Origin: a virus
UHGV virus genome: UHGV-0140083
Reading direction: 5' to 3' (one strand)
Length of the DNA stretch: 30,056 nt
Shown here in pieces: positions 1,595 to 2,440 of this stretch. Below the pieces are notes generated by a model, which saw nothing but the letters and a program-made list of their open reading frames with translations, searched no databases and was not told where the DNA came from. Position 1 is the first letter of the stretch, and each line of letters begins with the position of its first letter. The translations under genes were made by a program, and so were the position numbers.

Positions 1595-2440
1595 TTAAAC
1601 ATGCTTTTCCAAAGTAAAAATAACCGCACCTGATGGTGTGATATCTGAAATATTACATTCAAACTCAGCAGACTTATTTGATAACCTGACCTTTCCGCCT
1701 GGCAACCTAATTACGTCAAAAACATCGAGTGCGCCATCAATACCAATAAGCCAGCGACCATTTCCTATCTTCGAGTTAGAACTATCAACAAGCCAAGATG
1801 TGCTCACACCATCAATAAACACTAAATCATCAGTATTTGATGGAACCATAGATATATCAGGAGTCCAGCGTCCGATATCTTTGAGTTCGCCAGCCTCGAG
1901 GCGGCACTTTCTAATCGTTAAAGCATTTGCCGGTTCACCATCATTACTGTTACGCATCTGGCCTTTTCCGGTTGATAACCATTCTAACGATACGCCAGTA
2001 TCAAGGGCGCAAGTGACAACCACGTCACCGGGGAAAAAATCGCGTCTAACCCAAGTGCTTATAGTGCCGGAAGATATACCTAATAAATCTCCAAGCTCTT
2101 TTTGCAGAGTAAAACCATACGCATCGAGAATCCGACGCAGAACCGCCCTCCCTCCATTTGCCATGATTTCATCATAGAGTTGCTTACCTTTAAGCTTAGT
2201 TTTCACCACTTCAAATCTTGCATTTGCAAGCTCACCATTAATTAGCCATCGCAGGTCAGCTCCAGTATCAAGAGCACACTCAACGAAAACGTTGCTAGGG
2301 ATTACGTTTCTAGCAAGCCAGCTACTCACGTTGTTTGCATGTATGCCAAGCTTTTCGGCTAGTTCCTTTTGCTGCTTAAAGCCGTATGCAGAAAGGACAC
2401 GTTCCAATGCGGCAGACGCATTAACATCATTTTTAGACAT
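1595..2440 (-). CDS. cI: CI-type immunity repressor with two tandem N-terminal HTH domains
   Basis: Start chosen at the internal Met (MSKNDVNASAALERVL..., ATG at 2440-2438) rather than the ORF-track start at 2629. Two paralogous segments (ERVLSAYGFKQQKELAEKLGI...SSWL...ALDTGADLRWL and RRILDAYGFTLQKELGDLLGI...STWV...ALDTGVSLEWL) resemble the phage CI-repressor N-terminal domain; divergent from the lytic operon. Confidence 0.75.
   Translation of the reverse strand: MSKNDVNASAALERVLSAYGFKQQKELAEKLGIHANNVSSWLARNVIPSNVFVECALDTGADLRWLINGELANARFEVVKTKLKGKQLYDEIMANGGRAVLRRILDAYGFTLQKELGDLLGISSGTISTWVRRDFFPGDVVVTCALDTGVSLEWLSTGKGQMRNSNDGEPANALTIRKCRLEAGELKDIGRWTPDISMVPSNTDDLVFIDGVSTSWLVDSSNSKIGNGRWLIGIDGALDVFDVIRLPGGKVRLSNKSAEFECNISDITPSGAVIFTLEKHV

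Follow-up and report, generated by a model that had tools for sequence, protein, structure and literature searches.

The 30,056-nucleotide viral genome UHGV-0140083, called here in its whole length the window, is a PSP3/186-like (Eganvirus) prophage, and its immunity repressor, CI, carries two copies of the N-terminal helix-turn-helix (HTH) domain in tandem. This tandem N-terminal domain (NTD) is real and far above chance. The evidence favors a duplication that is functional and linked to immunity, and it fits two DNA-binding heads, each with targets of its own, better than a fixed pseudo-dimer. As to how the work might be divided, an evenly balanced case can be made that the first copy (NTD1) sets immunity at the early lytic promoter, pR, and that the second (NTD2) binds a set of conserved palindromes.

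Two N-terminal domains in one repressor

The cI gene leads a leftward lysogenic operon that faces the lytic promoter and continues into int, with the apl-position and cII genes to the right. On the minus strand it begins with the ATG at 2440-2438 and ends with the stop codon at 1597-1595. The program-made open reading frame (ORF) extends as far as a GTG at 2629, but two observations favor the ATG at 2440: some 7 nt ahead of it stands a Shine-Dalgarno-like GGTG that is also present in relatives, and the annotated homologue of Salmonella phage SI22 has 281 residues. The gene and its parts are:

1595-2440, minus strand: cI, gene for the 186/PSP3-type immunity repressor, 281 amino acids plus stop (ORF, Pfam, homologues)
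2225-2419, minus strand: NTD1, added hypervariable HTH domain, residues 8-72, recognition helix HANNVSSWLAR (PF07022, AlphaFold2)
2153-2224, minus strand: inter-domain linker, residues 73-96 (prediction confidence, variability)
1958-2152, minus strand: NTD2, invariant HTH domain, residues 97-161, recognition helix SSGTISTWVRR (PF07022)
1598-1915, minus strand: C-terminal oligomerization domain with the 186 CI fold, residues ~176-281 (PF16452, Foldseek)

When residues 1-85 were compared with the remainder of CI by BLASTP, they matched residues ~98-160 without gaps at 31 of 61 identical positions (51%, E = 2e-22). In Pfam, CI matches PF07022 (Phage_CI_repr) at two places and PF16452 (Phage_CI_C) at one, residues 176-269, with 69 bits for the latter (E 4.5e-19; cut-off 27 bits). 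Scanned separately against PF07022 (cut-off 22 bits), the half containing NTD1 scores 67.4 bits and that containing NTD2 98.3 bits. The original prediction, made from the letters of the window, was that the repressor consists of two paralogous segments of about 60 amino acids followed by a C-terminal domain; both peptides are present as quoted, and BLASTP and Pfam agree with this description. Both segments match the same family, and the alternative that only one of them is an HTH domain is not borne out. It also described 186 CI as shorter and with one N-terminal domain, which is correct (192 amino acids, a single PF07022 domain). Searched by itself, NTD1 hits 2FJR, the crystal structure of 186 CI, in its N-terminal domain (E 3e-9), and the whole window CI aligns with 2FJR over residues 100-274 only, at ~33% identity. 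NCBIfam holds no specific model for CI, for the apl-position protein or for the tum-like ORF.

Structure prediction is consistent with the domain searches. AlphaFold2 (AF2), run on full CI with a 52-sequence alignment, predicted both segments as five-helix HTH folds, with helices at residues 8-19, 24-31, 35-43, 49-59 and 63-68 in NTD1 and at 97-108, 113-120, 124-132, 138-148 and 152-157 in NTD2. An additional helix (86-95) is packed ahead of NTD2, and the C-terminal domain (CTD) is β-rich. Foldseek with this model returned 186 CI (2FJR) as the top match, and the CTD compares with 2FKD at a template modeling (TM) score of 0.88 and a root-mean-square deviation of 2.0 Å. The full model has a mean predicted local distance difference test score (pLDDT) of 74 and a predicted TM score (pTM) of 0.54; in a second run on residues 1-169 the domains were well folded (pLDDT 80-90) at a pTM of 0.46. 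Linker residues 72-81 have a pLDDT of ~40 (40-46 over 71-80) and are predicted to be disordered, and the linker is the most variable portion of the N-terminal half. Neither run predicted a confident packing of NTD1 against NTD2, which the second was made to look for, although a missing prediction does not prove that such packing is absent.

The two copies are not equivalent, contrary to what the first description of them might imply. When profiles were searched exhaustively, CIs with one domain (~190 amino acids) always aligned to residues ~95-280 of the window protein, that is, to NTD2 and the CTD, so NTD2 occupies the place that the only N-terminal domain has in 186 CI. In a neighbor-joining tree of domains the NTD2s are nested among one-domain CIs, and the NTD1s of the PSP3 group fall mostly into one separate clade with longer branches. 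In a set of 129 two-domain proteins, the HTH of NTD2, QKELGDLLGISSGTISTWVRRDF, hardly varies (mean column entropy 0.28), with its maximum of conservation in the recognition helix, whereas NTD1 occurs as many discrete HTH types (mean column entropy 0.98), with at least 13 recognition-helix types among relatives. Conserved palindromes at positions like those of the 186 sites FL, FR and pB, described below, likewise speak against equivalence.

This contrast between the domains does not stem from recent recombination, because synonymous sites are saturated in every domain when the window, PSP3 and Midge are compared: the proportion of synonymous sites that differ (pS) is 0.65-0.8 throughout, and for nonsynonymous sites (pN) the figure is ~0.05 for NTD2 and 0.25-0.30 for NTD1. 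Between members of one immunity type, such as the window and SI22, NTD1 retains 97% amino acid identity at a pS of 0.53, with a ratio of nonsynonymous to synonymous substitution rates (dN/dS) of ~0.02, indicating that NTD1 is translated and constrained. Both copies are under purifying selection, which disposes of the suggestion that the first copy might belong to an untranslated leader.

The same architecture recurs among related prophages across the Enterobacterales. Several E. coli chromosomes carry bases 1200-3000 at 99.7% identity, with the gene annotated as "phage repressor protein CI". CIs of 280-286 amino acids with two NTDs and the same genome context are found in Salmonella phages SW9/SI22 (91% identity), in PSP3 and SEN1 (~73%), and in Escherichia phage Midge and Klebsiella phage RCIP0057 (~67%). 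Among the matches listed, 120 protein clusters of 267-289 amino acids and at least 60% identity are all two-domain by hidden Markov model scan, and when genomes were scanned, genes of this kind turned up in Enterobacter, Kosakonia, Serratia, Pectobacterium, Dickeya, Lonsdalea, Pantoea, Buttiauxella and further genera. The two-domain CI is thus common in enterobacterial PSP3-like phages, and the window CI falls within the PSP3-type subgroup with two NTDs, having the order NTD1-linker-NTD2-CTD (~276-295 amino acids) and the invariant NTD2 helix ISSGTISTWVRR. The gene family is consequently not new, since PSP3 CI (AAN08403, deposited under a 2002-series accession) and more than 100 annotated clusters share its architecture, and the novelty first attached to the window gene is lost. 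The architecture itself seems to have escaped description. Nilsson et al. 2011 described the extra CI length as a "longer C-terminal domain", the Midge annotation gives Pfam names only, and the annotations of these phages do not mention a duplication; in the literature searched, which covered few subscription journals, no tandem-domain description was found for PSP3 CI or PF07022.

Tandem N-terminal domains also occur in other 186-type CI lineages, namely Klebsiella phage 4LV2017 (L004, 2417-3358), P0138, P0180, P0193, P0194 and P0248. The tandem copies are 63% identical in 4LV2017 and ~70% in P0180, and P0242 may have three. Those of 4LV2017, P0180, P0193, P0194 and P0248 arose separately from those of the PSP3 group, and the presence of tandem copies in independent lineages shows that duplication of the N-terminal domain is recurrent. 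P0224 and P0254 were considered as CI relatives and rejected as generic multi-HTH repeat proteins.

pR operators, immunity types and a conserved palindrome

The region between the start of cI and the lytic operon holds the following features:

2462-2490, plus strand: pR, early lytic promoter, TTTACA-17 nt-TATATT, 10/12 match (promoter scan; same position as 186 pR)
2441-2497, unstranded: immunity-type-specific operator/promoter block, from the cI start to the pR transcription start (comparison of types)
2455-2461 and 2470-2476: inverted repeat AATTTTG/CAAAATT, with N8 between, around the pR -35
2544-2572, minus strand: candidate weak pL, tentative, TTGATT-17 nt-CATTAT, facing pR (8/12 match, below the promoter-scan threshold and read from the sequence by analogy with 186)

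Comparison with relatives places an abrupt boundary here. Phage 613R3 is 98-100% identical to the window over 2501-3500 and 46-88% identical over 1201-2500, which puts the break in identity at the start of pR. Between the ATG of cI and the pR -10, the sequence differs among a window/SI22 type, a PSP3/613R3/SEN1 type and a Midge/RCIP0057 type, and the sequence to the right is common to all. The window NTD1 and pR block are thus of the SW9/SI22 immunity type, and the PSP3 and Midge types differ from it. Over 13 NTD1 helix types, the pR -35 is conserved, and the type-specific bases are positions 1-8 of the spacer and the 10 nt that precede the -35. In selected pairs in which the domains of CI dissociate, the pR sequence co-varies with NTD1, as the following identities illustrate:

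Window and Buttiauxella L034: CTD 38%, NTD2 86%, NTD1 HTH 78%, variable pR positions 75%
Window and 613R3: CTD 78%, NTD2 90%, NTD1 HTH 48%, variable pR positions 45%
613R3 and Midge: CTD 90%, NTD2 94%, NTD1 HTH 57%, variable pR positions 35%
Midge and Erwinia L032: CTD 53%, NTD2 87%, NTD1 HTH 87%, variable pR positions 85%

In several types the pR spacer holds a symmetric, type-specific palindrome: ATCGCATTTGCGAT in Kosakonia, GTCGCATTTTGCGAT in Serratia and ACACGTTACGTGT in Dickeya, and the Dickeya-type loci also keep distal sites of the TTGCA type discussed below. For the window there are two operator candidates at pR, the inverted repeat AATTTTG-N8-CAAAATT at the -35 and an asymmetric AAAAT-TT-AGCGA in the spacer. 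GCGATC occupies 2479-2484, directly upstream of the pR -10, and GCGAT(C/T) at this place is common to nearly all two-domain types (L001-L070). The one-domain relatives lack it, and the sigma-70 consensus does not account for it. CACCA repeats near the cI start were considered as operators and rejected, because they are simply the Shine-Dalgarno sequence of cI read on the opposite strand.

A different element, the palindrome TTGCA-NN-TGCAA, is found away from pR, at three places:

2215-2232, unstranded: FL-like palindrome AGCTTGCAAATGCAAGAT, core 2218-2229, inside cI codons 71-75 (L-A-N-A-R), exact match
2925-2942, unstranded: FR-like site AATTTGATTATGCAAGTT, at the junction of the apl-position stop and the cII start, two mismatches to the 12-mer core, right half perfect
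29482-29499, unstranded: palindrome AACTTGCAAATGCAATTT in the late-activator (pag/ogr) promoter, spanning its -35 and the initial six bases of the spacer, exact core match

The exact core occurs twice in the window, at 2218-2229 and 29485-29496, with the outer bases ACTTG...CAAGT. With up to three mismatches allowed, the 18-mer gives 3 matches at 2 sites (the pag site on both strands), versus 0.03 expected. The palindrome lies inside cI at the equivalent place in most of the two-domain loci examined, and the constraint there acts at the level of the DNA, as the codons that form it are kept and their neighbors are free. The Ala72 codon is GCA in 50 of 52 sequences versus a 21% background (binomial p ~1e-31, ignoring relatedness), that of Ala74 is GCA in 34 of 42, and 46 of 52 sequences have CTT or TTT as codon 71, for Leu and Phe alike; adjacent Gly, Glu and Leu codons vary freely. 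The cI genes of the Midge and Pectobacterium types encode other residues at codons 71-75 and retain the palindrome 8 nt downstream. At the pag promoter, ATGCAA is kept in PSP3, SI22, Midge, RCIP0057 and SEN1, and the remaining spacer varies. At the FR-like position, AACTTGATTATGCAAGTT or TTGC(A/T)TTTGCAA is found in many genera. NTD2 helix variants (STAT, APGT, SGTM, SGTV) were compared with changes in the palindrome, and no clean co-variation was found; the Pectobacterium and Brenneria "STAT" loci alone show TCGCA in one palindrome half.

One-domain relatives connect this palindrome to an NTD2-like head. The genome scan found 18 loci (L071-L088; Rahnella, Ewingella, Chimaeribacter and Franconibacter) encoding 196-residue CIs whose sole HTH is NTD2-like (LSSGTISTWVRRDYF), and the pR spacer in most of them is AACTTGCAAATGCAAGTT. 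The Rahnella, Ewingella and Chimaeribacter proteins (L071-L087) have the NTD2-type recognition helix LSSGTISTWVRR in their only NTD and a CTD homologous to that of the window; they are without NTD1, and pR itself holds the palindrome that the window has at its FL-like and pag sites.

A proposed division of labor between two heads, and the rival readings

In the proposed arrangement, a 186-type repressor oligomerizing through its CTD would have gained a second, N-terminal HTH domain, giving two heads with different jobs. NTD1, the outer head, would read the type-specific operators at pR and repress the early lytic promoter; it is taken as the head for immunity specificity because its discrete types vary together with the surroundings of the pR -35 and spacer. 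NTD2, the inner head, would recognize the palindromes that do not vary, those of the FL-like, FR-like and pag sites, the first two of which lie ~250 bp to the left of pR (in cI) and ~460 bp to its right (at the apl/cII junction, in a weaker form). A CTD wheel of dimers would bind three pR operators two turns apart, and looping of the distal FL-like and FR-like sites would adjust the activity of pR and pL, both by analogy with 186 (PMC3675496). The immunity cassette would comprise the NTD1 coding sequence and the adjacent pR operators, ~300 bp in all. As the NTD1 coding sequence lies 20-215 bp from the operators, immunity could change as one small unit, and exchange or divergence of the cassette would leave the distal looping sites, late-gene control and the oligomerization domain untouched. 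That an invariant inner head runs the FL, FR and pag sites while a swappable outer head creates new types through such a cassette is a tentative proposal, somewhat less secure than the division of labor itself. The domain-to-site assignments, the wheel and the regulatory consequences are put forward on comparative grounds.

Much of this arrangement resembles that of 186. The two repressors (2FJR and 2FKD for 186) share the NTD family PF07022 and the CTD family PF16452; the switch order int-cI/pR-pL/apl-cII is the same; and an SOS-controlled antirepressor module is common to both phages. 186 CI has sites at pR, at FL inside cI, at FR 15-31 nt upstream of cII and, in two copies, at pB, and the window sites lie at matching positions. 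Of the 14-mer wheel that wraps DNA and loops it between pR and the distal FL and FR sites, the window shows the likeness of the CTD fold and the conserved FL- and FR-like sites. The 186 FL, FR and pB sites share TTCAC-N5-GTGAA, and the 186 pR spacer reads CTCTCAATTGGGAGA. To go by the title of Shearwin et al. 2002, the single HTH of 186 CI reportedly binds two distinct recognition sequences. 186 CI has one NTD, whereas the window CI has two, one invariant and one variable, and this two-head arrangement would be an alternative, natural two-domain solution to reading two classes of site.

Several observations weigh against this division of labor. Over all loci, Mantel tests relate pR distance to NTD1, NTD2 and CTD distances alike (r 0.68-0.74; partial 0.51-0.60), and the selected dissociating pairs are relied on because phylogeny confounds this test. 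Most types carry (T/A)GCGAT(C/T) by the pR -10, suggesting that NTD2 may act at pR too. Among the palindromes, that of the pag promoter overlaps the -35 hexamer, so its conservation may be partly a promoter constraint, and the FR-like site of the window has its two mismatches. The Franconibacter locus L088 pairs an NTD2-identical recognition helix with a different pR palindrome, ACCTCGACTTTTTGAGGT (ACCTCGA...TGAGGT), indicating that helix sequence alone does not fix specificity. The assignment of domains to sites draws on co-conservation and on the one-domain relatives. Finally, an NTD2 that represses the late activator of every type may lead to partial cross-repression of heteroimmune phages, a possible problem for the arrangement. 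As a separate observation, L088 has a TTGAT..TGCAAGTT site ahead of cII.

The notion that NTD1 and NTD2 of one chain form a single-chain pseudo-dimer, each taking one half-site of an asymmetric operator so that all operators are composite, is the strongest rival, although an unlikely one. It draws on the make-up of the pR spacer, in which the half by the -10, (T/A)GCGAT(C/T), is shared by most types and 60-80% conserved over 13 of them, the other half is type-specific (AAAAT in the window, AACTT in PSP3, ACTCA in Midge), and the two halves stand in the same 5-2-5 frame as the palindromic sites; a linker of ~25 residues could, moreover, span adjacent major grooves. The structural models do not define such a unit, as inter-domain packing is not confidently predicted, the pTM is low in both runs (0.54 and 0.46) and the linker has a pLDDT of ~40. 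Each of the conserved sites, FL-like, FR-like and pag, is symmetric, and the pR operators of the Dickeya, Kosakonia and Serratia types are palindromes of one half-site type, for which two identical heads are a better fit than a hetero-pair. Linked pairs of HTH units that read asymmetric or bipartite DNA are familiar from engineered single-chain 434 repressors and from natural monomers with two HTH units, among them MarA/Rob and POU domains. Those proteins act as one composite head, whereas the evidence on the window CI favors two heads with separate targets on an oligomeric scaffold. The expectation that the duplication changes operator geometry and immunity specificity survives in part: NTD1 appears to carry the specificity, and the composite head is not supported as stated.

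Less probable still is that NTD2 no longer binds DNA and has become a protein-protein module, for instance for docking of a LexA-controlled Tum-like antirepressor or as a spacer in wheel assembly, with NTD1 as the sole DNA-binding head and another factor reading the palindromes. Near-invariance across genera is typical of protein-interaction surfaces, and the SOS-controlled antirepressor module at 6793-7250 is conserved; PSP3 has a split tum whose upstream half acts as antirepressor (PMC3121763). Against this reading, the recognition helix is the most conserved part of NTD2, the one-domain relatives bind DNA through this same HTH and no other and have the palindrome in their pR spacer, and the palindromes lie at the positions of known 186 CI sites. 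Decay or non-translation of one copy is very improbable. The functional repressor would then be 186-like with one domain, made for instance by starting internally near Met92, which yields the size of 186 CI (~190 amino acids); this is contradicted, given the strong purifying selection on NTD1 within an immunity type, its full length in at least 129 proteins, the replacement of Met92 by Leu in the Midge and Pectobacterium types, and the lack of an evident Shine-Dalgarno sequence upstream of Met92, in contrast to the conserved one that precedes the ATG at 2440.

Neighboring genes and meaning for the phage family

The other genes and sites of the window that bear on the switch are:

2554-2925, plus strand: first gene of the lytic operon, at the apl/cox position, 123 amino acids, counterpart of PSP3 gp30
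2958-3467, plus strand: cII-like gene (PF06892)
6793-7250, plus strand: likely CI-directed induction module, consisting of a LexA box, a 60-residue ORF and a DinI-like ORF
29544-29762, plus strand: ogr/pag/B-like late activator gene

The gene at the apl/cox position has no Pfam or NCBIfam match and is 98-100% conserved between heteroimmune relatives; Nilsson et al. 2011 called its PSP3 counterpart a singleton. The induction module opens with a perfect LexA box, TACTGTATAAATATACAGTA, at 6793-6812. It is followed by the 60-residue ORF (6831-7013), which has no family match and occupies the position of the antirepressor half of PSP3 tum, and by the DinI-like ORF (7017-7250; PF06183). This arrangement matches the split tum operon of PSP3, in which the upstream half encodes the antirepressor (PMC3121763).

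TGCAC direct repeats 10 bp apart stand in the conserved leader between pR and pL (2509-2532), and a related inverted copy lies at 156-179, beyond int near the prophage end. As CI sites, the repeats at 2509-2525 are disfavored, since they belong to a block conserved with the apl-position gene and have the related copy beyond int; they are instead candidates for binding an Apl-like excisionase both at the switch and at att, in the manner of 186. Between cI and int, an ORF of the DUF2511 (YebY-like) family at 1247-1585, with a signal-peptide-like N-terminus, is absent from 186 and is likely a cargo gene for lysogenic conversion.

The gene family was already known and annotated, and the value of the finding lies in an unrecognized architecture and its consequences. 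186 CI is a model for cooperative repression through the wrapping and looping of DNA on a protein wheel. A common two-headed natural relative would allow tests of how classes of operator are partitioned between heads, of how many heads can be used per wheel, and of how immunity specificity changes with the rest of the switch left as it is. For prophage annotation, the immunity type can be taken from NTD1 and the pR block, and the parts could serve as orthogonal repressor modules. Between heteroimmune relatives, a possible partial cross-repression of late genes is predicted.

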